Of a DNA stretch of 64,000 bases, positions 15,228 to 57,315 are shown in pieces (positions within the stretch are counted from its first letter, which is position 1; the number at the start of each line of letters is the position of its first letter). A program made the position numbers and the translations under genes. This DNA comes from an uncultured Eubacteriaceae bacterium. Lineage in GTDB: Bacteria > Bacillota > Clostridia > Eubacteriales > UBA1433. The stretch spans positions 20,761-84,760 of the forward strand of contig CAZHMK010000005.1 of the NCBI GenBank assembly GCA_964533615.1, written 5' to 3'. The notes under the pieces were generated by a model, which made no database searches, was not told the origin of the DNA, and saw only the letters and a program-made list of their open reading frames with translations.

Positions 15228-15782
15228 TTATTTAAAACATTTTCTTACTGCATGCATAATATCTTTTCTGTATTTCTCAATGTCTGCGTCTATATTCAAT
15301 CCTAATTTAGGCATTTGCACAAAACTTACCAAGTCTGCATTCAAGTCCTGTATGTAAAATTCCAATACATTCGGAAACGTTTCATATTGATTTCTATATT
15401 CTCCCGCTCCAGGCGATAAGATAACCATTTTTTTTCGTTTGCTGTTTCTTTGTTTGATCCTATTGCTGAAATGCAGCGAAACAGAACGGTCAATCACTGT
15501 TTTTAAAACCGAGGAAACACTGTTATAATAAACAGGTGCGCCAAGTACAATAATATCTGCTTTTACATAGGATTCACAAAGTGATTGCATATCATCTTTG
15601 ATCATGCATGATCCTTCTGTTTGACGGCAAAACCAACAACCTCTACAATATCCTATATTTAAATCGATCAAATCGATTCTTTCAATATTTGCTTCTTGCT
15701 CAAAGTTTTCCAAAAATATATCCAGAGCGCGTTTTGTACATCCGTTTTTCCTGTGACTGCTGTTGAGTGCTAATATATTCAT
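15228..15782 (-). CDS. Flavodoxin family / iron-sulfur flavoprotein-like protein
   Basis: SSHRKNGCT, CxxCxxC-x5-C (CRGCWFCRQTEGSC), APVYY. Confidence 0.85.
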   Translation of the reverse strand: MNILALNSSHRKNGCTKRALDIFLENFEQEANIERIDLIDLNIGYCRGCWFCRQTEGSCMIKDDMQSLCESYVKADIIVLGAPVYYNSVSSVLKTVIDRSVSLHFSNRIKQRNSKRKKMVILSPGAGEYRNQYETFPNVLEFYIQDLNADLVSFVQMPKLGLNIDADIEKYRKDIMHAVRKCFK

Positions 15783-17422: not shown

Positions 17423-18796
17423 TTAACCCGCTTGTTGCTTAACTAAATTCTTGATCCACTTTTTAGAGCGGTATCTCGGCACAAGCAAAAACAGTTTTAA
17501 AATATGTTCAATGTTAATGAACATTATGATCCAGTAAACAGGTAATTTAAACCATAGAGCTGCAATAAAAGAGATAGGGACTACGTATCCCCAAATAGAA
17601 AATAATTCAAGAATCATACAGAATTTTGTATCTCCGCCGCTTCTGAGTATGCCTACTACAAATAAATAATCACACATTGAAAGAGGCATCGCGCAGGCCA
17701 TGACTAAAAGAATATTTGCCAGCATCATATTTGTTTGAACGTGCAGATCAAATAAACTGATAATTGGTTTTCTTGTCAGAATCAAAACAGCTCCGAGAAC
17801 AAAGCCCAGCATGATAATGATGAAGATAAACTTCTTTGAATATTTTTCCGTCAATTCATAACGTTCTTTCCCGATTTCATTTCCAAGCATAATGGCGCAT
17901 GCATTCCCTATCCCAAAAAACAATGCTTCAAAAATACCATTGATACTATATGCAATTTGTACTGCCGCAACCGCATTTGCACCAAGCCGGCCGTAGGCAA
18001 TGTAAATTACAGTCATACCAAGTGACCAAATTATTTCATTGATAAGTACGGGAAATGCAACTTTTAATTTTTCTTTCAATATTGCATAATTCCATAAAAA
18101 AAGATCCGATAATTTGATTAAAAGCGGGTACTTCTTGTATTTAAATAAGTACCATCCATAAAATAAAAACTCGACACTTCTTGCAACAAGTGTAGCCACC
18201 GCCGCTCCGCGTACACCCATTGCATAGAATCCCAAATGCCCAAAAATGAAAATCCAATTTAAAATTGTGTTTAACAAAACTGACAGTATATTGATTGCCA
18301 GCGGTATTTGCACAATGCCCAGTGATCTTAATGTGAAAGAAACAGAAAAAGAAGATGCCATAAAAAAATAACTGAATACGGCAATTCTAAGATAACTTTT
18401 TCCAAGCTGAATTACAGAATTATCTTTTATAAACCAAGATATGATTACATCTGGATATAAACTTATGCTCAAAATAAAAATAATCGCTACACAAACCCCT
18501 AAAAACCATTGCATCCCAAGCATTTTTTTTACATTCAAGATATCTTTTTTTCCCCAATACTGCGCAGTAAAAATACTCATACCACTGTATATCCCAAATG
18601 TAACCAACGTGAAGAAAAAATAAATTCTGTTGCAAATTCCTACCGCAGCAATTGCTTCTTCGCCAAGTGAGCCAATCATGATGGTATCTATTGTATTCAA
18701 TGAAATAGCTACTAAATGTTGCAGTGCAATAGGTATTGCCAGTGAAAGCATGAGAGAATAAAATATTTTTTTATTATAATTTTGTATGGATTGCAT
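17423..18796 (-). CDS. MATE family efflux transporter
   Basis: About 12 TM; DTIMIGSLG, MGVRGAAVATLVAR, LRSGGDT. Confidence 0.92.
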   Translation of the reverse strand: MQSIQNYNKKIFYSLMLSLAIPIALQHLVAISLNTIDTIMIGSLGEEAIAAVGICNRIYFFFTLVTFGIYSGMSIFTAQYWGKKDILNVKKMLGMQWFLGVCVAIIFILSISLYPDVIISWFIKDNSVIQLGKSYLRIAVFSYFFMASSFSVSFTLRSLGIVQIPLAINILSVLLNTILNWIFIFGHLGFYAMGVRGAAVATLVARSVEFLFYGWYLFKYKKYPLLIKLSDLFLWNYAILKEKLKVAFPVLINEIIWSLGMTVIYIAYGRLGANAVAAVQIAYSINGIFEALFFGIGNACAIMLGNEIGKERYELTEKYSKKFIFIIIMLGFVLGAVLILTRKPIISLFDLHVQTNMMLANILLVMACAMPLSMCDYLFVVGILRSGGDTKFCMILELFSIWGYVVPISFIAALWFKLPVYWIIMFINIEHILKLFLLVPRYRSKKWIKNLVKQQAG

Positions 18797-18835
18797 GACT
18801 TCTCCACATATGTATTTTTGTTTCTAACTATATGT

Positions 18836-18870
18836 AAGCCTTGCCAATATGGCAAGACTTTTCTTTTTTT
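18836..18870. terminator. Intrinsic terminator-like hairpin downstream of the 53-aa microprotein
   Basis: AAGCCTTGCCA-ATA-TGGCAAGACTT hairpin; the long T-tract is on the plus strand. Confidence 0.55.
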
Positions 18871-18881
18871 TAATTTTAAGG

Positions 18882-19043
18882 CTACGAATCGCAGTTTTCG
18901 ATATTATTGTATTTTTTTGAGTTACTCTGGGAATTGTTTTGTGAACTGCTTTGTGAATTACTCTGCGTATTTTTTGTATTTTTTACGCTTTCAGTATTCT
19001 TTTTATTACTCATTCTATTTTGATTTTGATTATTTTTTGCCAT
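18882..19043 (-). CDS. Unannotated 53-aa N/Q/S/K-rich microprotein
   Basis: GAGGTG RBS 6 nt before ATG; MAKNNQNQNRMSNKKNTESVKNTKNTQSNSQSSSQNNSQSNSKKYNNIENCDS*; followed by a hairpin. Confidence 0.72.
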   Translation of the reverse strand: MAKNNQNQNRMSNKKNTESVKNTKNTQSNSQSSSQNNSQSNSKKYNNIENCDS

Positions 19044-19110
19044 TATTCTTCACCTCGCTACTATTATTAAAAAAATAATCAAAATTATTCTTACCATATT
19101 TTACTATTTT

Positions 19111-19803: not shown

Positions 19804-20574
19804 ATGGCAAAGGTTTATTGCGTTTTTAATCAAAAAGGCGGCGTTGGCAAAACAGCGACAACAACGAATTTAGGTGCCGCTCTGGCAAGATTGGGTTTGC
19901 GTGTATTGGTAGTGGATGCCGATTCGCAGGGTAACTTGACAAGCGGTTTGAATATGAAAGTTGAAAAAGGCGGTAAAACGCTTTATGATGTCATCTGCGG
20001 AAAAATGGATATTCAAAAAGCAATTATGCCAACAAGATATTCCGACTTAATGCTCATTCCCGCAAATTCAACACTTGCAGGCTGCGAGGTAGAACTTGTT
20101 AGCGTTCCAAAACGAGAACTAATATTAAAACAAGCTTTATCGAGTATCTTGGATAAATTTGATTATATTTTAATAGACTGTCCCCCTTCTCTTGGATTGA
20201 TATCCATTAATGCTCTGGCGTCTTCCGATGGGATCATTGTGCCGATTCAATGTGAATATTACGCACTTGAAGGTGTCAGCAATTTAATCAATACAATCAA
20301 TCTTGTCAAAAGAGGTTTGAACCCGCTGCTTGATATTATTGGTATCGTGCTCACTATGTATGATAGCCGAACCAATTTATCGGTACAAGTTGCAGCTGAA
20401 GTAAAAAGATACTTCAGAGAAAAAGTATTCAATACCATTATCCCCAGAAATGTTAAAATTGCCGAATCACCCAGTTTTGGCAAGCCGGTTATTTACTATG
20501 ATGAATCCTCAACCGGCGCAAAGGCGTATACTCTTCTGGCTTCTGAATTAATAGAGAAAGAGGGAACTCAATGA
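19804..20574 (+). CDS. soj: Chromosome partitioning ATPase ParA/Soj
   Basis: Deviant Walker A NQKGGVGKT, IDCPPSLG, QCEYYALEG, IPRNV. Confidence 0.97.
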   Translation: MAKVYCVFNQKGGVGKTATTTNLGAALARLGLRVLVVDADSQGNLTSGLNMKVEKGGKTLYDVICGKMDIQKAIMPTRYSDLMLIPANSTLAGCEVELVSVPKRELILKQALSSILDKFDYILIDCPPSLGLISINALASSDGIIVPIQCEYYALEGVSNLINTINLVKRGLNPLLDIIGIVLTMYDSRTNLSVQVAAEVKRYFREKVFNTIIPRNVKIAESPSFGKPVIYYDESSTGAKAYTLLASELIEKEGTQ

Positions 20575-21446
20575 AAAAGAACTCTGTCGCTTTAGGAAAA
20601 GGATTAGACGCCTTAATACCAGTTTATTCTAATGAGCCGGAATCTAACAACGGCCAAAGCCAACCCATAGAATTGGCAGTTGGTAAGCTTTACGCGAATA
20701 CATCACAGCCCAGAAAGTATTTTAATGATGAAAAAATCAGCGAATTAAGCGAATCAATCAAAACACACGGTGTGTTGCAGCCTCTGATTGTTGTCCCCTC
20801 TGAAGACGGAAAATATAAAATCGTTGCCGGAGAACGCAGATGGCGCGCGGCTAAAAGAGCCGGGCTTGAAACAGTGCCGGTATTGATTAAAAATTACAAT
20901 GAACAGGAAATACTTGCTATTTCTCTTGTAGAAAATTTACAGAGACAAGATTTACATGATATAGAAAAAGCAATCACTTATCAGACATTGATAGAAGAAT
21001 TTTCCTTGACACATGATGCGCTGGCAGCTATGCTCGGTATAAGCCGTGCTGCCGTTTCCAATACACTCAGGCTTCTTTCTCTAACAAAACAGGAGCAAGA
21101 TGCTTTAACAGAAGATAAAATATCATCAGGTCATGCGCGTGCGTTGTTATCTTTACCGGAAGGCAAAATGAGAGAACATGCGCTTGCTGCAATCATTAAG
21201 AATAATTTATCAGTGAGAGAAACGGAAAAACTTGTCAAAAATATTATCAAGCCAAAACCTGTCAACCCTCAGTTTAAAGATGTAAACATCATGCAGTTAG
21301 AGGCAGAGTTAACGGAAATTCTCGGAAGTAAAGTATTAATCAACGAATTTAACGGAAAAGGCAAGATCATTATTGAATATTACAATAAAAATGACAGAGA
21401 TAGAATCATAGAAGAACTTTCTCATATATTGGATCAAGAAATGTGA
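20571..21446 (+). CDS. spo0J: Chromosome partitioning protein ParB/Spo0J
   Basis: [46 protein letters not shown]. Confidence 0.96.
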
Positions 21447-31391: not shown

Positions 31392-31904
31392 TTACTTAAA
31401 AATAAAACTGCAGATAAGAAAAGCGGTAAAAATCCCCAATATGTCACAGCTAAGCGCGACCGGCAAAGCATATTTTGTTTTTTTGATATTGACGCATCCA
31501 AAATATAAAGCAATGATATAAATAGTGGTCTCATTGCTCCCCGCGATTACACAGGCCAACCTTCCTATAAAAGAATCAGGATGATATGCTATCAGTGTAT
31601 CTGCAAGAACCGCATTAGCCCCTGAGCCCGAAATAATTTTTATAAAAGACAAAGGCAACACCTCGGATGGAAATCCGATAGCCTCACAGAAAGGTTTAAA
31701 TACCTTAATAAGAAAATCCATCATTCCGCTGTTTCTAAAAATACCAATCGCGCATAATACCGCAAGGATATACGGAAAAACTGTTGCAATTGTGGACAGG
31801 CCGCTTTTTGCTCCTTCGATAAACGTATCATAGACAGGAACCCTGCATTTTATACCATATAAAATGATAGCCAATACAAACAAAAGAACAATTATTTCAG
31901 ACAT
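31392..31904 (-). CDS. spmB: Spore maturation protein B
   Basis: YDTFIEGAK, PDSFIGRLA, ETTIY..ALYFG; directly downstream of spmA. Confidence 0.92.
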   Translation of the reverse strand: MSEIIVLLFVLAIILYGIKCRVPVYDTFIEGAKSGLSTIATVFPYILAVLCAIGIFRNSGMMDFLIKVFKPFCEAIGFPSEVLPLSFIKIISGSGANAVLADTLIAYHPDSFIGRLACVIAGSNETTIYIIALYFGCVNIKKTKYALPVALSCDILGIFTAFLICSFIFK

Positions 31905-32488
31905 TTAAACCTTCTCCAAAAGCGCACGATCTTTACAAATACAATCCCGCTGAGTGTAGTAATAAATGTTGCAAACAATGTTGGAACAATAATTTCAGCC
32001 GGGGCTGTCGAACCATATACAGCACGTAGTGAAATAACACTGAGCGGAATGAGTTGAAGAGATGTTGTATTAAGTACAACAAACATAATCATATCATCAA
32101 GCACCTTATCATCCTGAGAACCGTTTTTCATTTTATGCATTTCCTTCATAGCCTCCATACCAAACGGTGCAGCCGCATTTCCGAGACCAAATAGATTTGC
32201 CGAAATATTAAGTAGAATATATTGCATTGCTTTTATATTTTTTTTTACCGTTGGAAACAACAGTCTGATTACCGGCATAAAAGCATGTGCTATTTTGCGT
32301 ATAATACCAGTCTTTTCTGCTATTTTCATAATACCTAACCAAAAAGACCACACTGCGCCGAATGTTATTAAAAGCTCTGCCGTTTGCATGCAACTCTCGG
32401 CTATTCCGCTTAAAACCTGCGGATAAGTGCCGTTAAACAAAGATACGACGATGCCTGATACAATAAAAAAAATAAACACTTTATTCAT
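31892..32488 (-). CDS. spmA: Spore maturation protein A
   Basis: FWLGIMKIAE, NISANLFGLGNAA.PFG, VVLNTTSLQLIP. Confidence 0.93.
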   Translation of the reverse strand: MNKVFIFFIVSGIVVSLFNGTYPQVLSGIAESCMQTAELLITFGAVWSFWLGIMKIAEKTGIIRKIAHAFMPVIRLLFPTVKKNIKAMQYILLNISANLFGLGNAAAPFGMEAMKEMHKMKNGSQDDKVLDDMIMFVVLNTTSLQLIPLSVISLRAVYGSTAPAEIIVPTLFATFITTLSGIVFVKIVRFWRRFKCLK

Positions 32489-32590: not shown

Positions 32591-33205
32591 ATGAAAGTTC
32601 TTGCCGTTAACGGAAGCCCGCATGAATTTGGGTGTACATATACCGCATTATCTATCATGAAAGAAGCATTACTTAAAGAAAATATCGATGTCAATATTCT
32701 GCATATCGGTACAGGTCTTATTGGAGGATGTATCGGATGCAGAAGCTGCATAGAGACAAAAAAATGTGCTTTTGATGATATTGTCAATAAAGCGGCAGTC
32801 CTCGCCAGAAATGCCGACGGGCTCATTATTGCTTCTCCCGTTCATTTTTCGGGTATTGCTGGAAATATGAAATGTTTTTTAGACAGATTTTTTTATTCGG
32901 CCGGCAGTGAGATTATGGCTCATAAGGCAGGAGCCGCCCTTGTGTGCCTTCGCCGCAGCGGCGGAAGCGCCGCTCTGGACAGCATGAACCATTACCTGCA
33001 TTATTCAAAAATGGCTGTGGCTTCCTCACATTACTGGAACATTATACACGGTCAGTCCCCGGATGAAATTTATAAAGATGAAGAAGGCGTACAAATCATA
33101 AAAACAGCCGCACAAAATTTGGCATGGCTTTTGAAATCTATTCAGAAAAGCTGTATGGACATACCTAAAAAAGAACCTCGCAAACGCACAAATTTTGTAC
33201 GCTAA
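32591..33205 (+). CDS. Flavodoxin family / iron-sulfur flavoprotein-like protein
   Basis: NGSPHEFGCT, CIGCRSC-x5-C, SPVHF, RRSGG, YWN. Confidence 0.88.
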   Translation: MKVLAVNGSPHEFGCTYTALSIMKEALLKENIDVNILHIGTGLIGGCIGCRSCIETKKCAFDDIVNKAAVLARNADGLIIASPVHFSGIAGNMKCFLDRFFYSAGSEIMAHKAGAALVCLRRSGGSAALDSMNHYLHYSKMAVASSHYWNIIHGQSPDEIYKDEEGVQIIKTAAQNLAWLLKSIQKSCMDIPKKEPRKRTNFVR

Positions 33206-33274
33206 TCAAAATGAACAAATCCAAAATCCACTGATATAATTTTGAATTTTGGATTTTTCATATAGGTAATTTTT

Positions 33275-33460
33275 TTATAAAATAATATTTATCTGGTTAT
33301 TATTTAAAAAATCTAAATCTATTAATGAAATTATAAATCCTGATGCCTTATGCGCGCAAGACGGCTTTGACGGTGCGTTGATTAAAAAGATAACACTGCC
33401 GTCGACATCATGTTTTTGAATATTTTCACTATTAAAACAGTCTTTACATTCTGCCATCAT
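33275..33460 (-). CDS. Small Cys-containing protein B (paralog of 33604-33741)
   Basis: AAGGGGAAG RBS; MMAECKDC...DGSVIFLINAPSKPSCAHKA aligns with the upstream microprotein. Confidence 0.72.
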   Translation of the reverse strand: MMAECKDCFNSENIQKHDVDGSVIFLINAPSKPSCAHKASGFIISLIDLDFLNNNQINIIL

Positions 33461-33480
33461 ATCTTCCCCTTTTTATGTTA

Positions 33481-33517
33481 TGTTACAATATATGTATTAT
33501 TTGCGTAGTTGTTGACT
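33481..33517 (-). promoter_or_regulatory. Putative sigmaK-type promoter, copy B
   Basis: Minus strand AAC-N16-CATATATTG; 30/37 nt identical to 33765-33801. Confidence 0.6.
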
Positions 33518-33550
33518 CTTATTTACATATTTCTAAAAAGACTGCATAAT

Positions 33551-33592
33551 AAAAAAAACCGGATCAATATATCTGATATGTATCCGGCTTTT
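33551..33592 (-). terminator. Intrinsic terminator after microprotein A
   Basis: Minus strand GCCGGAT...ATCCGG followed by a T8 tract. Confidence 0.75.
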
Positions 33593-33603
33593 ATTATAAA
33601 TCT

Positions 33604-33741
33604 TTAAACTTTTTTTATATCCGCTGCTTTACAAGAACAGCAAGGTTTTTCGGGTACATTAATTAAAAAAATAGTCTGTCCGTCACTTTTTTTGATTGCC
33701 TGTATTTGATTTATTTCATTACAAGTTTTACATTCAGTCAT
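33604..33741 (-). CDS. Unannotated 45-aa Cys-rich microprotein A
   Basis: GAGGAG RBS; MTECKTCNEINQIQAIKKSDGQTIFLINVPEKPCCSCKAADIKKV*; own terminator; paralog next door. Confidence 0.78.
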   Translation of the reverse strand: MTECKTCNEINQIQAIKKSDGQTIFLINVPEKPCCSCKAADIKKV

Positions 33742-33764
33742 TTTATTTTCTCCTCTTTTGTTTC

Positions 33765-33801
33765 TGTTACAGTATATGTATTATATTCTTTCTTGTTCAC
33801 T
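33765..33801 (-). promoter_or_regulatory. Putative sigmaK-type promoter, copy A
   Basis: Minus strand AAC-N16-CATATACTG. Confidence 0.6.
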
Positions 33802-33837
33802 GCTGAAAAAAACACAATTTTACTTCATTGCAAAAAT

Positions 33838-33868
33838 AAAAAATCACATATTTATTATAAAATATGTG
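33838..33868 (-). terminator. Probable terminator of the DUF134 gene
   Basis: Minus strand CACATATTT-TATAAT-AAATATGTG-ATTTTTT. Confidence 0.55.
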
Positions 33869-33937
33869 TATGGAATGCTTTGGTATTGTTAATTTTCAGA
33901 TTTTATAAAATAATTACTTTAAAAAAATGTTTTTTCT

Positions 33938-34282
33938 TTAAGTATCTTTATCTTTCATGCAATTTTTATTGCACGACCAATATGTATCTTTTGAATAAGG
34001 ACAAACTTCATATTCACCGCCTTCAATTTTAATTCTTTTACCTTCCACTAAAGCTTCTGCAATTATTTTGCGTGCACTTTCATACAGACGCTGGATTGTC
34101 GACCTGCCCACCCCCATAATGATGGCACATTCGGTTTGATCAAGGCCGTCAAAATCAATGAGACGAATACATTCATATTCTTCACATTTCATGTTAATCG
34201 TGGCGCCTTGTCCGCTGCCACAAATAAAATATTTAAAGTTCGGTTCCTTACAAATACGCTTGTTTTTTTTTGGTCTTGACAT
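33938..34282 (-). CDS. DUF134 family predicted DNA-binding protein
   Basis: MSRPKKNKRI..P, EEYECIRLID..GLDQ.ECA..MGVGRST, AR..IA.ALVEGK.I.IEGG; TTGAAA-17-TATAAT promoter at 34306-34334. Confidence 0.9.
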   Translation of the reverse strand: MSRPKKNKRICKEPNFKYFICGSGQGATINMKCEEYECIRLIDFDGLDQTECAIIMGVGRSTIQRLYESARKIIAEALVEGKRIKIEGGEYEVCPYSKDTYWSCNKNCMKDKDT

Positions 34283-34595
34283 GAAAGCCCCTCCTTTGCC
34301 TGTCCATTATAAACCTCAAATCCATTACTTTCAAGTAATTTTTTATTTTGAACAAATACTAAAAATAAAATTTATAATAATATAAAAATCGATATCAAAC
34401 GACCTTTAGAAAATAAGTAAATTAAATGTTTTTGTTTGAAATGTATTGATTAAAGCAATTCTGCGGACAAAAAATCTGCACAGTATTATAAAATATGTTT
34501 TGGGATTTTGTTTTATATTTATAAAACATCAAAAATTTGTATTCATAGCAATTTAGTGGTAGAATAAACAAAAATAAAAAAGGAGATATATTTTT

Positions 34596-34711: not shown

Positions 34712-35785
34712 TTGAATAATTTAATAAAATATGGCGCAAGTGAGCGCTTTTTTGCGGAAGCCACACTCTATGCCAACCTACATTTGGCAAGAGTGGTTTC
34801 ACAATATAAAGATTTATATAAAATTGCCACTGAGCAAGGAGAAATATTTGCAGAGATTTCAGGTAAATTTCGGCACGAATGTACACATCTGTCATCTTAT
34901 CCTGCAGTAGGCGACTTCGTGATGGCAGACCGCATGAGCAACGATAACGGCCGTGCAGTCATTCATCATGTGCTGAGGCGCAAAAGCATTTTTGAGCGCA
35001 CGGCTGTTGGCATAAATAACGAAACACAAATTATCGCCGCCAACATTGACATTGTCTTTATATGCATGTCTCTCAATGATGACTATAACCTAAACCGTTT
35101 GGAGCGCTATCTCTCGGTGGCATGGAGCAGTGGAGCAATACCGGTGGTTGTGCTTACGAAATCGGATTTATGCACTGACTTGACCACTGTTCTAACAGAA
35201 ATTTCTGACATCGCGCTCGGAGCGGATATTATCGCAACATCCGGCTACGACCAAGCTTCGTGCGAGAAACTGCTCTTTTATCTCAAACCTGGGATCACGG
35301 CATCTTTTATCGGTTCTTCCGGTGTGGGAAAATCCACGCTCATCAATCGGATAATCGGAGAGGATTTACTGGCTACATCGGCGGTCAGGCAAGATGATAA
35401 AGGCAGGCATACCACCACACATAGACAGCTGCTTATCCTACCGAAAGGCGGTATTGTCATTGATACGCCCGGTATGCGGCAGCTTGGTGTGGACTCGGTT
35501 GATTTATCCGTTTCCTTCGCCGATATCGACATTTTAACGTCACAGTGTCGTTTTACTGATTGTACACACACTTGTGAACCCGGCTGTGCTGTACAAGAAG
35601 CGCTGAGAACAGGCATGCTCGATAAACGCAGATTTGATAATTATCAAAAACTGAAAGACGAGGCCAAATATGACGGCCTCTCCTCCAAACAAATTGAAAT
35701 CAAAAAACTTAATAATATGTTTGGCAGTGTGGGCGGAATGAAAAAAGCAAAAGATTTTATCAAAAAGAACAATAAAAAAAGATAA
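34712..35785 (+). CDS. rsgA: Ribosome small subunit-dependent GTPase A (long, accessory type)
   Basis: Circularly permuted GTPase TKSD / GSSGVGKST / GRHTTT / DTPG; zinc finger CRFTDCTH..EPGCAV; TTG start after GGAGGT. Confidence 0.93.
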   Translation: MNNLIKYGASERFFAEATLYANLHLARVVSQYKDLYKIATEQGEIFAEISGKFRHECTHLSSYPAVGDFVMADRMSNDNGRAVIHHVLRRKSIFERTAVGINNETQIIAANIDIVFICMSLNDDYNLNRLERYLSVAWSSGAIPVVVLTKSDLCTDLTTVLTEISDIALGADIIATSGYDQASCEKLLFYLKPGITASFIGSSGVGKSTLINRIIGEDLLATSAVRQDDKGRHTTTHRQLLILPKGGIVIDTPGMRQLGVDSVDLSVSFADIDILTSQCRFTDCTHTCEPGCAVQEALRTGMLDKRRFDNYQKLKDEAKYDGLSSKQIEIKKLNNMFGSVGGMKKAKDFIKKNNKKR

Positions 35786-36035: not shown

Positions 36036-37538
36036 TTATATAATAATCAAAGGTGTATAACTTTTTAACTCTTCTTCATTTTCAATATTATTATCTTCAA
36101 GAATTTGCTCAGGTGAAGTTAAATATTTTTTGGCGATATCCCATAACGCTTCATTGGGCTGAACATAGTGTACGGCAATGACATAATCGTCACTAAATCC
36201 GGCAGTCTGGGCATCCAGCACAATATTTTTTACAATCTTCATTGTCTTATCTTCAAATTCAAACACGCTTACTTCAATATTTAATGCCGTGCTGATGCTT
36301 GAAGAGGAGCATTTAATATCTGCCTGTGTGATTTGAGGATGAATATAAAAAGACGGACAGCTAACATCCAAATTGACATCAAACTCCAGCTTTTCTTTAC
36401 TTACAAAATATTTTTCATCTTCCGAATAAGATGAAAAGATGGCCGTGACTATCGCGCAGCCGCCGTATTTCATTTGCCCGTCGGAAAGATATGGTTCCGC
36501 AGTGAGAGATACATCATGATACAACAATGCTTTTGTTGCGTTCTGCAAAAGCGTTTCCTTTGACAGCGGAATTGCTTTTACATATTTGTTTTTAATCAAA
36601 AAAGTATTTAATTGTTCAAATTCAACAGTAGATACTGCTTTTTTTACATAAGCATCCGTGAGCACTCTGGTTTTACAGTTCTGATACATATATGCTGTAG
36701 TTTTAATATTAATTTCCACGTTGATATAACCATCCTGGCTGCTTTGGTCAACTTCGGCAGTCTTAGAGATTATGGACGCATAAATTTGGTAATAATCAAT
36801 AGAAGAGAGGCTGCTGCGTTCAATAAAACAGTTAAACGGCAATTCAAAATCAAATGTTTTATATATTTTTTCATTCTCTATATAACAAAGCACATTTCCT
36901 TTTATCATCGCATTATATAAAATTCCCACATTACTCAGGCTGTGAGAAATATCACTTAACACGCTGCTGACAGATACAATTTCAATTTCGGCCTCATTGC
37001 CAATGAAGATGCTGTCTCTTAGGGTTTTCTCTTCACTTTGGGTTCTTGCCGACATATGTTCAATATCTTCATATTTATACATCATATTTTCTGATGAAGT
37101 GACAGCCTCCAGCGCTACGCTCTCTACGGTTATGACGCTCATTCCCAAAATATTTAAAATGCACTCTGCTTCCACTTTTCTGTTTTTGAGCATTTTTATA
37201 TCTACATTTTCCACCAAAACATAATACATATGATTATAGGCGCCTTCCGGATAATCAAAATCCGCATTTACATTAAAAACAGCCGGAATATGTATGTTTT
37301 CATAATCTCCTTCCTCCGTCTCATAATACGCAGTGATATTAACAGCTCCGTCTATTGTCATTTTACCGTCTTTTATTTTTATTTCCGTTATATCTGCGCT
37401 TTGAGAAGAGGAGAGCATTTTATATACATTGCTTTTATAATCAGGTATTTTAACGCTCTCATAACACGTCGCCTTTAAATTGATACTGCTTGTTTTAATA
37501 TCAAACCGAACGGTATTATCAAATAAATTTTGATCCAT
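36036..37538 (-). CDS. SPOCS (DUF3794) + LysM spore coat morphogenetic protein, SipL-like
   Basis: Beta-rich repeats (IPDYK..V.K.L, KMTIDG.V) and C-terminal LysM (YVQPNEALWDIAKKY.TS...I...N); start placed at MDQ after AAGGGGG. Confidence 0.8.
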   Translation of the reverse strand: MDQNLFDNTVRFDIKTSSINLKATCYESVKIPDYKSNVYKMLSSSQSADITEIKIKDGKMTIDGAVNITAYYETEEGDYENIHIPAVFNVNADFDYPEGAYNHMYYVLVENVDIKMLKNRKVEAECILNILGMSVITVESVALEAVTSSENMMYKYEDIEHMSARTQSEEKTLRDSIFIGNEAEIEIVSVSSVLSDISHSLSNVGILYNAMIKGNVLCYIENEKIYKTFDFELPFNCFIERSSLSSIDYYQIYASIISKTAEVDQSSQDGYINVEINIKTTAYMYQNCKTRVLTDAYVKKAVSTVEFEQLNTFLIKNKYVKAIPLSKETLLQNATKALLYHDVSLTAEPYLSDGQMKYGGCAIVTAIFSSYSEDEKYFVSKEKLEFDVNLDVSCPSFYIHPQITQADIKCSSSSISTALNIEVSVFEFEDKTMKIVKNIVLDAQTAGFSDDYVIAVHYVQPNEALWDIAKKYLTSPEQILEDNNIENEEELKSYTPLIII

Positions 37539-37650
37539 TGCATATGCCCCCTTATAATAGTTCATACCTATTTATATTTCATAAGAATACAAAAATATTC
37601 ATACTATAATAAAATATAGTTTTAAAAAGGCTTGATTATGACAAGCAAAA

Positions 37651-54637: not shown

Positions 54638-56536
54638 ATGACATATACAGCAGGAAATTATGATGTAATTGTAGTTGGCGCAGGCCATGCAGGCTGTGAG
54701 GCGGCTTTAGCCGGTGCGAGAAAAAATAAAAAAACATTGCTGCTGACCATTAATTTGGACGCAGTTGCTATGATGCCATGCAATCCGTCGATTGGGGGCA
54801 CAGGCAAAGGGCATTTAGTGAGGGAAGTGGATGCGTTAGGCGGGGAAATGGGCAAAATTATCGATAAAACATTTATTCAAAATAGAATGCTCAATACCAA
54901 AAAAGGGCATGCCGTGCGCTCGCTGCGTGCACAAGCAGATAAAAAAAGATACCAGGCAGCTATGAAGCAAGTTCTTGAAATGCAGGAAAACTTGGATTTG
55001 GTGCAGCAGGAAGTGGCGCGTCTGGACGTTGAAGATGATGTTATCAAAGGTATTACCACACAATCGGGGCTCTATTACAGCGCAAAGGTTGTTATTATTG
55101 CATCGGGCACTTATCTGAACGGAAAAATCATTATCGGGGATTATTCCTATCAAGGAGGGCCAAACGGTATACGTGCGGCAGTGGGGCTTTCGGATAGTTT
55201 GCTAGAGTTTGGAATCAAGCTTATCAGGCTAAAGACCGGTACTCCGGCACGGATCAACAAGAGAAGCGTAGATTTTTCAAAAATGGGTCGTCAAGACGGA
55301 GATGAATATATTGAGCCGTTTTCATTTGAAAACACATTTGACTCTGCGCCGCAGCATCCGTGTTATCTGACGTATACGAATGAAGAAACACATGAGATTA
55401 TCAGACAGAATCTGCATCGCTCTCCTTTATTTGGAGGTAAAATAGAAGGAACGGGGCCGAGATACTGCCCGAGTATAGAAGATAAAGTAGTGCGATTCTG
55501 CGATAAAGATAAGCATCAGCTCTTCATTGAGCCTGAAGGGCTGGATACAAACGAGCTCTATGTGCAGGGATTATCTTCTTCATTGCCTGAAGATGTGCAG
55601 GTAAAATTGATGCACACTATCAGCGGACTTGAAAACGCGGAGATCATGCGCAGTGCGTATGCCATTGAGTATGATGCTATTGATCCTGTGCAGCTTAAAA
55701 CATCACTTGAGACAAAAGCCGTTAAAGGCCTTTTTATGGCAGGGCAAATCAACGGCACATCGGGCTACGAAGAAGCAGCAGGGCAGGGAATCATTGCCGG
55801 TATCAATGCAGCGAACTATATTGACGGAAAAGATCCTGTGATATTAAAAAGAAGCGATGGATATATCGGTGTTTTGATTGATGATATCACAACTAAGGGG
55901 ACAAGCGAGCCTTATCGCATGATGACTTCACGTGTGGAATACAGACTTTTGCTTCGTCAGGATAATGCGGATATGCGTTTGACGGAAATAGGCTACAGGC
56001 AGGGGCTGATATCCGAGGAAAGATATAAGAAGTTTTTACAAAAAAAACAAGCGATTGAAGAGCAGCTTCAAAGATTAAAAACCATAAAAATAAAGGCAGA
56101 TGAAAAAACAAACAAATGTTTAGAAAATAGGGACTCGTCGGCTATAACAGAAAGCATGACACTCTATGAATTATTAAAACGCCCGGAGATCGATTATAGT
56201 TTTGTTGAGCTATTTGATGAAGAATCCAAAATGCTTGACAGACGAGTAAAAGAACAAGTAATAATTCAAATAAAATATGAGGGATATATTAAAAAGCAAG
56301 CACAGCAGGTAGAAAGATTTTTAAGGATGGAAGAAAAATTAATCGATGAAGAGATCGATTATAAGGATGTTGAGAATCTGAGACTTGAAGCAAGAGAAAA
56401 ATTAATCAAAATCAAGCCAAAATCTCTGGGACAAGCATCAAGGATACTTGGCGTATCACCATCCGATATCTCGGTGCTGATGATTTACATGGAAAAGCAG
56501 AAACAAAAAACAAAGCAGGGAGAGGAGAAAGTATGA
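54638..56536 (+). CDS. mnmG: tRNA uridine-5-carboxymethylaminomethyl synthesis enzyme (GidA)
   Basis: [42 protein letters not shown]. Confidence 0.98.
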
Positions 56537-57315
56537 AAGTAAAAAATAAATCTGAAATGATACCTATTGATTGGATTGTTCCGAATAGAAATCAGCCGCG
56601 AAAGCATTTTGACGAAGAAAGTTTAAATGAATTGGCAGATTCCATAGCAAAAGTGGGTATTATTCAGCCGCTTACCGTTAAAACGATGCCAAACGGCAGA
56701 TACGAACTCATAGCAGGCGAGCGCAGGCTGCGTGCTTCTAATATAGTAGGGCTTACAAGGGTACCCTGTATTATTGTTGAAGCAAGTGAAGAAGACGCAG
56801 CTTTTATAAGTATGATTGAAAATGTGCAAAGAGAAGATTTGAATTTCATTGAGGAGGCAATGGGATATAAAACACTTTTATCTACATATAATTTAACGCA
56901 GGAAAAACTTTCCAATATTATAGGGAAAAAACAGTCGACTATTGCCAATAAGCTTAGGATATTGAATTTAAATGAAGATATTTTAAATTTGCTTAATGAA
57001 AATGCTCTTACGGAAAGACATGCCAGAGCATTGCTCAAGCTTCCCACAACTGAGCGTCTTGCGGCAACAAAAAAGATCATTAAACGTGGACTCAATGTGC
57101 GTCAGACAGAAGAAATGATTGATGACATGAATCAAAAAGATGGTATAAACCCAAAAAAGAGAAGAGTGACAAATATTATCGATAAACGAATTTATGTCAA
57201 CACGATCAAAAAAGCTTTTAATGACATCAAAAAAACAGGGTTGCGTGCGCTGTATGCAGAGCAGGAAGACGGAGAAAATATCACGATTACGATTGTGATC
57301 CCAAAAAAGAATTAA
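56533..57315 (+). CDS. noc: Nucleoid occlusion protein (ParB paralog)
   Basis: [17 protein letters not shown]; [15 protein letters not shown] and TERHARALL typical of Noc; follows mnmG. Confidence 0.88.

Follow-up and report, generated by a model that had tools for sequence, protein, structure and literature searches.

The window examined here is a stretch of 64,000 nucleotides (nt) on contig CAZHMK010000005.1 of an uncultured Eubacteriaceae bacterium, and covers a replication-origin region with dnaA, dnaN, recF, gyrB and gyrA. On its minus strand, between a gene for a DUF134 (UPF0251) helix-turn-helix protein and a convergent flavin mononucleotide (FMN) reductase gene, two adjacent small genes, A and B, encode cysteine-bearing microproteins (Table 1). 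Judged by the comparisons described below, they belong to a real, constrained, unnamed and rare family of proteins of 45–67 amino acids (aa), which is restricted to this lineage and is found in the same genomes as a set of sporulation genes. The comparisons cover seven genomes of the window's family (G000, the window's own genome, to G006) and 102 genomes of its order.

Table 1. Genes and sequence signals at the microprotein locus, with two further open reading frames (ORFs) of the same genome. Positions refer to the window unless a contig of G000 is given.
Feature	Position	Strand	Description
Microprotein gene A	33604..33741	-	45 aa; N-terminal CxxC, predicted beta-hairpin, C-terminal CCSC; from the ORF list and the orthologues in G006, G003, G004 and G001
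Microprotein gene B	33275..33460	-	60 aa if translated, as is probable, from the second ATG (33457); 61 aa from the first
Shine-Dalgarno sequence of A	33750..33755	-	GAGGAG, 8 nt 5' of the ATG; read from the sequence
Shine-Dalgarno sequence of B	33465..33470	-	AGGGGA, 4 nt 5' of the first ATG and 7 nt 5' of the second; read from the sequence
Promoter-like site of A	33771..33796	-	AC (33796-33795), 16-nt spacer, CATATACT (33778-33771); conserved in orthologues
Promoter-like site of B	33487..33512	-	AC (33512-33511), 16-nt spacer, CATATATT (33494-33487)
Terminator hairpin of A, followed by T8	33548..33592	-	-15.5 kcal/mol, z=-4.69, 0/200 shuffles as good; G006 also has a hairpin here
AT-rich hairpin of 14 bp separating B from the convergent FMN-reductase gene	33217..33256	.	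-13.6 kcal/mol, z=-2.51, 3/200 shuffles as good
Weak hairpin and T-run between DUF134 and A	33832..33868	-	-8.6 kcal/mol, z=-1.63, 11/200 shuffles as good
DUF134 (UPF0251) helix-turn-helix protein	33938..34282	-	PF02001, E=2.6e-22, 79.7 bits against a cut-off of 27; promoter TTGAAA-17-TATAAT at 34334-34306
RsgA-type GTPase	34712-35785	+	357 aa; a second RsgA-type gene, present in this place between the DUF134 and SipL-like genes in just two genomes, G000 and G006
SipL-like protein	36036..37565	-	509 aa; C-terminal LysM 28 bits against a cut-off of 20.9; SPOCS domain 20.1 bits, below the cut-off of 23.6
Two Gate-domain membrane proteins	31392..32488	-	13-nt overlap; PF07670 in both; beyond the convergent FMN-reductase gene
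ORF of unknown function, many Cys	G000:C4:163921-164592		224 aa, no Pfam family; behind AC-N16/17-CATATAAT
ORF of unknown function	G000:C12:13371-13739		123 aa, no Pfam family; behind AC-N16/17-CATATAAT

A preliminary description of the window, made from its letters, had placed ORFs A and B at these positions with the translations that we obtain, and the details it gave of the pair were reproduced. It had estimated that about 20 of the first ~40 residues are common to both proteins; BLASTP aligns them with 20 identities in 40 positions and one gap (E=2e-11). The shared motif, M-x-E-C-K-x-C ... DG-x-x-IFLIN-x-P-x-KP-x-C ... KA, is as it had been given, each gene has its own Shine-Dalgarno sequence, and the cysteine patterns are CxxC and CCSC in A, CxxC and CxH in B. 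On this similarity A and B are paralogues, and the duplicated stretch takes in the promoter region too. The duplication is more than chance, since orthologues of both copies have been kept in other genomes under purifying selection. The orthologue of B in G006 has a single methionine, which suggests that translation of B probably starts at the second of its two ATG codons.

The same description had separated DUF134 from A, A from B, and B from its convergent neighbor by hairpin terminators. Folding recovers all three hairpins, that between DUF134 and A being weak (z=-1.6); in G003 and G004 a GC-richer hairpin with a T-run occupies the corresponding position between DUF134 and the first microprotein gene. 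The AT-rich hairpin downstream of B is probably a two-way terminator, and the B genes of G006 and G003 are also trailed by similar hairpins. A strict rule-based terminator scan of positions 33100-34500 returned 0 sites, because the stems are AT-rich or the loops long. Given these signals, it is reasonable to read A and B as separate transcription units; both are monocistronic in style, with a strong Shine-Dalgarno sequence, a terminator of their own and a tandem duplicate. An Rfam search of the hairpin between B and the FMN-reductase gene (33207-33266, plus strand) gave a sub-threshold match to the hammerhead HH10 (E=0.022; 25.5 bits, where the gathering score is 75), which we take as chance.

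Six-frame searches found strong matches in five of the seven family genomes. Four of these, G000, G006, G003 and G004, belong to one genus and carry a tandem pair each, and G001, from a second genus, carries a single copy, which gives nine genes in total. The gene order is SipL-like, DUF134, A-type, B-type, and the single copy of G001 likewise follows the SipL-like gene and the DUF134 paralogue. No member of the microprotein family turned up by the same searches in G002 or G005, which are 99% and 100% complete. Order-wide, matches at E<=0.1 occur in 19 of the 102 genomes; those better than 3e-21 are confined to five genomes (9 places), and in the 95 genomes of the order outside the family nothing is better than E=0.004.

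The ratio of nonsynonymous to synonymous substitution rates (dN/dS, Nei-Gojobori) could be estimated from four close orthologue pairs, more distant pairs being saturated at synonymous sites. Between G000 and G006 it is 0.165 for A and 0.099 for B, and between G004 and G003 it is 0.192 and 0.283. Values of 0.10-0.28 indicate that both copies are under purifying selection as proteins.

The preliminary description had also held the family to be undescribed, and the searches for homologues support this. Neither protein has a significant match in Pfam, NCBIfam, PHROGs or PADLOC, and no Pfam or NCBIfam family reaches E<=1 except for a chance NCBIfam match at 12.6 bits against a cut-off of 160. Relatives do exist in genomes of the window's family and in protein collections, and in two sources members are labelled only 'hypothetical protein'. 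A word-index search of 5.8 billion proteins recovered two relatives of 76-79% identity, both with that label; the window's own A is not among the matches listed from this collection, and gene callers seem to have passed it over. When 1.84 billion representatives were searched with a profile, 10 proteins came up at E<=0.001, of which 8 are small relatives of 47-67 aa. The remaining two, P0005 with its fn3 repeats and P0009, a 2056-aa repeat protein with no Pfam family, were rejected as artefacts in which repeats add up many weak partial matches. Scans with a narrower alignment yielded one relative among 38 pattern matches in genome_contigs and one among 321 in metagenome_contigs, each 91% identical to A. 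In the protein atlas, the clusters at 0.90 are unnamed and named clusters lie below 0.9.

An alignment of 15 sequences shows where the family is constrained. Met1, Cys4, Ile27 and Pro30 are invariant, and Cys7, which completes the N-terminal CxxC, occurs in 14 of 15, the exception being the B-type protein P0007, which reads CKSY (possibly a natural variant, possibly a sequencing error). The central segment is conserved as (D/K)G-x-x-(I/V)(F/Y)(F/L)I(N/H)-x-P-x-x-P. All 15 sequences have at least one cysteine C-terminal of this segment, with varying position and companions: the C-terminal ligands read HCSC, CCSG, CCTT, a single C or CxH. B ends in a conserved tail, ...LIDLDFLNNN..INIIL, which is kept as ...LID(L/I)..LDFLN... 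in the five B-type sequences. AlphaFold2 models built on shallow alignments place strands at 13-17 and 23-27 of A (predicted local distance difference test score, pLDDT, 64.5) and the same hairpin in B (pLDDT 59.5), with a short helix at 48-53 in the tail. A Foldseek search of the models against the PDB gave no match at E<=0.001. By sequence, the best PDB match covers 26 residues of monothiol glutaredoxin 5, comprising a strand and the active-site loop, at E=0.089, which is a lead only; no solved zinc ribbon is matched significantly (bL33 E=0.56, HypA E>5). We rejected a monothiol glutaredoxin on account of this E value, the absence of a CGFS motif and a length of 45 aa, which is too short for a thioredoxin fold.

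Zinc-ribbon or other metal-binding proteins and disulfide-crosslinked spore-surface proteins were the two roles that the preliminary description had proposed. The classical zinc ribbon did not hold up. Like zinc-ribbon and rubredoxin-like mini-proteins, the window's A has a CxxC, a predicted hairpin and a second CxxC (C34-C37), but the second knuckle is not conserved in the family, being complete only in the window's A, HxxC in three others and reduced to one or two cysteines at shifting positions in the rest, and one member is without the second N-terminal cysteine. We therefore rejected a ribbon with four ligands in two CxxC knuckles. The variable C-terminal ligands indicate that a closed four-ligand site is not a conserved property of the family and that the N-terminal CxxC together with one further thiol is. 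The spore-surface role fared better, and draws support from the form of the promoters, from co-occurrence with SpoIVA, SipL-like proteins and sporulation sigma factors, and from co-loss with them.

The distribution of the family coincides with that of genes for sporulation. SpoIVA scores above its curated cut-off in five of the seven family genomes, a SipL-like gene is present in five, and sigma factors of the SigE/SigK type (E<=1e-40) are found in five. They are the same five genomes (G000, G003, G004, G006 and G001) that carry A and B and the DUF134 paralogue beside them. A and B thus show the phyletic pattern of a sporulation gene set, being present in five genomes with spore genes and missing from two that lack them. 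G002 and G005 are two species of one genus with genomes of 1.6-1.7 Mb, without SpoIVA, a SipL-like gene or sporulation sigma factors; the sigma-factor search gives nothing in them but weak matches (1.7-1.8e-18) to an open frame of 408 aa, read here as the primary sigma factor. They look like an asporogenous, reduced sub-lineage. At the corresponding locus their flanking genes are kept, in the order HGSNAT-like, FMN reductase, gyrA. Missing are the block of B, A, DUF134, the RsgA-like gene and the SipL-like gene, and the Gate-domain pair between the HGSNAT-like and FMN-reductase genes, which we take to be SpmA/SpmB-like. The only RsgA in G002 and G005 is a copy elsewhere, 31-33% identical to the product of the window's gene.

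We anchored the upstream regions of all nine microprotein genes on the start codon. CATA is present in all nine promoters and CATATAnT in eight, G001 reading CATACTCT, and the -10 octamer ends 26-33 nt 5' of the start codon. In seven of the nine an AC lies upstream of the -10 element, at a distance of 16 nt for A and B of G000 and G006 and of 17 nt for A of G003 and G004 and for the gene of G001; in the other two, which are the B genes of G003 and G004, GC stands there instead, at 16 nt. Between orthologue groups the spacers themselves have diverged widely. According to a study of Clostridioides difficile (PMC3789822), the -10 boxes of sigma-E and sigma-K promoters are very similar there and the -35 elements differ, ATA versus AC; the sigma-K promoter of sigK is given as CATATAAT plus AC. 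The form found here, (A/G)C-N16/17-CATA...T, conforms to the sigma-K pattern of a -35 AC, 16-17 nt and CATA---T. At the same five loci the DUF134 gene has TTGAAA-17-TATAAT in four cases and TTGCAT-18-TATAAT in one, and CATA in none, so that two distinct promoter types, both conserved, stand next to each other. Elsewhere in G000, spoIIIAA is preceded by the form of the microprotein genes (AC-N17-CATATATT), a cotJ-like operon by AC-N17-CATATTAT, and the sigK-like gene has CATATAAT as its -10; the upstream region of a dpaA-like gene contains only AC-N15-CATAAGCT and that of the SipL-like gene CATAATCA, neither being a clear case of this form. Of 2807 ORFs that are at least 100 aa long, 25 have the relaxed form AC-N16/17-CATAnnnT at the right distance and 6 of 2807 have the strict form. 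On balance we consider the promoters probably to be of the mother-cell type, and of the sigma-K rather than the sigma-E form. A sigma-G/F-type promoter was rejected by eye against consensus sequences.

Directly 3' of the -10 element, at 33761-33770 and 33477-33486 on the minus strand, we observed the sequence GTAACA(G/T)AAAC, which is found in G000, G006 and G001. For A of G000 and G006 the region forms a 9-bp palindrome, CTGTAACAG, which is not kept in G003 and G004. The element could be an operator or merely the start region of the transcript.

The reading that we favor, with a probability of roughly 0.5, is that A and B are sporulation-linked microproteins made late in the mother cell, and that they are probably components of the spore surface joined by thiol links between subunits. 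They would be part of this uncultured lineage's sporulation gene set, each gene forming its own unit driven by a promoter of the mother-cell type (AC, 16-17 nt, CATATAnT, the sigma-K form); it is from this form that we infer dependence on sigma-K and late expression in the mother cell. Most likely, the products would then end up on the developing spore, as small structural parts of its coat or surface. Their core would be a short beta-hairpin flanked by the N-terminal CxxC and by one to three C-terminal Cys or His residues, and these residues may cross-link subunits, through disulfides after release or through a shared metal, rather than form a single closed site of four ligands. For docking, the conserved acidic-hydrophobic tail of B is a candidate element.

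Several findings weigh against this reading. Searches of Pfam, NCBIfam and PDB sequences revealed no homology of A or B to known coat or exosporium families, and the predicted hairpin comes from models of low confidence at the pLDDT values given above. The only sequencing runs listed as containing the stretch are DNA runs labelled sludge metagenome, with no RNA run among them. The sigK-like gene is whole in G000, G006 and G001; none was found in G003 (87% complete), and in G004 (82% complete) only model positions 6-94 are present, in a fragment on a separate contig. These gaps may reflect incomplete assemblies (82-87%) or an interrupted sigK. The promoters have the same geometry as those of sigma-A (TTGACA-17-TATAAT), and both score 9/12 in a sigma-70 scan, a score that is common in this AT-rich DNA (12 sites versus 8.9 +/- 2.5 in shuffles). 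Genome-wide the strict motif occurs 97 times, and about 100 occurrences are estimated from base composition. Of the 97 matches, 23 have a downstream ORF, and 17 of these were annotated (four of 44-67 aa were left out, as were A and B): spoIIIAA is the sole recognised sporulation gene, nine belong to other families and seven to none. With 1 sporulation gene in 17, the motif alone predicts little. The absence from G002 and G005 is also less than two independent observations. Their FMN reductases are 77% identical to each other and 56-59% identical to that of G000, and their genomes are ~30% smaller; as sisters at this locus they probably owe the co-loss to one event, and a single deletion removing the SipL-like gene could have carried dispensable neighbors with it.

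Some of these points would equally suit ordinary vegetative small proteins, for instance thiol- or stress-related ones, that are transcribed by sigma-A and were lost by a hitch-hiking deletion: both promoters fit the sigma-A consensus at 9/12, the strict motif is at chance level, and the loss was probably a single event in a lineage that shed ~30% of its DNA. This remains unlikely in our judgement, because the C and A directly 5' of TATAnT are kept in 9/9 promoters and two genera despite diverged spacers, and because the good sigma-A promoter of the neighboring DUF134 gene is without that C and A at all five loci. The microprotein family is, moreover, found in neither of the two non-sporulating family genomes, and beyond the family the other 95 genomes of the order offer nothing better than E=0.004. 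That the ORFs are functionless remnants left by a duplication, or are untranslated, could be suspected from their small size and from the absence of the window's A among the matches listed from the 5.8-billion collection. Such a view is hard to square with dN/dS of 0.10-0.28, with intact frames in five genomes of two genera whose Shine-Dalgarno sites and start context are conserved, and with eight related small proteins in other assemblies; conservation of the orthologues together with dN/dS refutes it as far as sequence comparison goes, and we hold it to be extremely improbable. Precursors of ribosomally synthesized and post-translationally modified peptides (RiPPs), for example thioether-bridged ones matured by an enzyme encoded elsewhere, would also be small, with several cysteines near the C-terminus and tandem paralogous copies, and SCIFF and ranthipeptide precursors share with A and B both size and C-terminal cysteines. 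The differences are considerable. No radical-SAM, lanthipeptide, cyclodehydratase or peptidase-transporter gene, nor any other peptide-modifying enzyme, was found among 50 of the 52 window ORFs of at least 90 aa (the two outside the scan being 18782-19078 and the antisense 33706-34032), and none of these four gene types was found in the orthologous loci that were read. NCBIfam precursor models give no match, conservation is strongest at the N-terminus and the central hairpin rather than in a C-terminal core behind a variable leader, the reverse of the pattern in those precursors, and the C-terminal cysteine pattern varies freely. The preliminary description had thought a RiPP role less likely for want of an adjacent enzyme, and we agree that it is very unlikely.

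The neighboring DUF134 gene raises another alternative, in which A and B are small zinc- or iron-sulfur-binding or redox proteins that work with the DUF134 protein as co-regulators, sensors or direct targets, and in which their role would be regulatory or cytoplasmic, not structural, though the module may still be specific to sporulation. This DUF134 paralogue adjoins the microprotein genes in 5/5 genomes and is confined to these five, both being missing in the other two; its orthologues share 78-93% identity among themselves and at most 52% with other DUF134 proteins. The protein has invariant cysteines C11 and C94 and a C-terminal cysteine group, which in this paralogue reads CPYSKDTYW(S/A)CNKxC. 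Within the order, 82 of 102 genomes have DUF134, often as several copies, and most of the other loci that we read stand beside NifX-like and Mrp/MinD-type metal-cluster genes and small Gly/Cys-rich ORFs. Those loci are alike in placing the helix-turn-helix protein beside small cysteine-containing proteins; they differ in that the partners are unrelated in sequence and in that the present paralogue is confined to sporulating genomes of one family. The N-terminal CxxC (14/15), the C-terminal cysteine (15/15) and, as a lead only, the weak local likeness to monothiol glutaredoxin 5 (E=0.089) also agree with such a role. Partner or antagonist pairs are usually co-transcribed, whereas A and B each come with a separate promoter and terminator, and their promoter type is unlike that of DUF134. 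A complete four-ligand set is not conserved either, and the glutaredoxin match is not significant, in a protein too short for the thioredoxin fold. A complex prediction for DUF134 and A scored 0.00, which is no verdict and counts neither way. Taken together these points leave the metal or redox role doubtful. We think it quite unlikely that the DUF134 paralogue, A and B form a regulatory module specific to sporulation, with DUF134 as a small late regulator, in a lineage that like other Clostridia is not known to have GerE, and the microproteins as metal- or redox-sensing partners or as its dedicated output.

As sporulation-linked surface components, the reading we favor, A and B would have counterparts among known proteins. 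The cysteine-rich spore-surface proteins CdeC, of 44.7 kDa, and CdeM, of 19.1 kDa, of C. difficile are described in PMC9542656, and many coat and exosporium genes of that species are sigma-K dependent according to PMC3789822. CdeC and CdeM are thought to cross-link the outer spore layers by disulfides. A and B are like them in bearing cysteines, in being restricted to a lineage, in having promoters of the sigma-K form and in co-occurring with SpoIVA and SipL; they differ in showing no sequence similarity and in measuring 5-7 kDa with only 3-5 cysteines. By analogy A and B resemble the lineage-specific, cysteine-bearing coat and exosporium proteins of Clostridia, yet they fall into none of their families. 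In Bacillus subtilis the mother-cell microproteins SpoVM, an amphipathic helix, and CmpA act on SpoIVA-based coat assembly. A and B share with these two the status of microproteins, and their genes share a conserved block with a SipL-like gene; unlike SpoVM, they are predicted to form a beta-hairpin with flanking cysteines, and there is no homology. SpoVM and CmpA are both mentioned in PMC9542656.

Proteins of the spore surface and of late sporulation are poorly conserved outside model species, and small ones are routinely missed by gene callers. With A and B, the genes linked to sporulation would gain a new family of small proteins, from an uncultured Eubacteriaceae lineage of anaerobic digesters. 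In the literature, as far as it is searchable, DUF134/UPF0251 receives passing mentions with no tested function. As the domain is so widespread in the order, a sporulation-linked paralogue offers a usable entry point to it, and the module of DUF134 and microproteins, if true, would be the first to tie the large DUF134/UPF0251 family to an assignable biological process. In practical terms the locus is of modest value, as the microprotein family is rare and its chemistry proposed from sequence.

The survey of the strict motif also pointed to two ORFs of G000, of 224 and 123 aa (Table 1), which we picked as cysteine-rich-looking from the seven without a family. Both follow the 5/7 pattern of A and B, being absent from G002 and G005, and are candidates for further spore proteins. 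A search of G000 for yabG did not find this gene. The origin region also carries a ParA-like gene and two genes of the ParB/Noc type (19804-21446 and 56533-57315, plus strand); its FMN_red flavoproteins number two (15228-15782 and 32591-33205), as do its MATE transporters.

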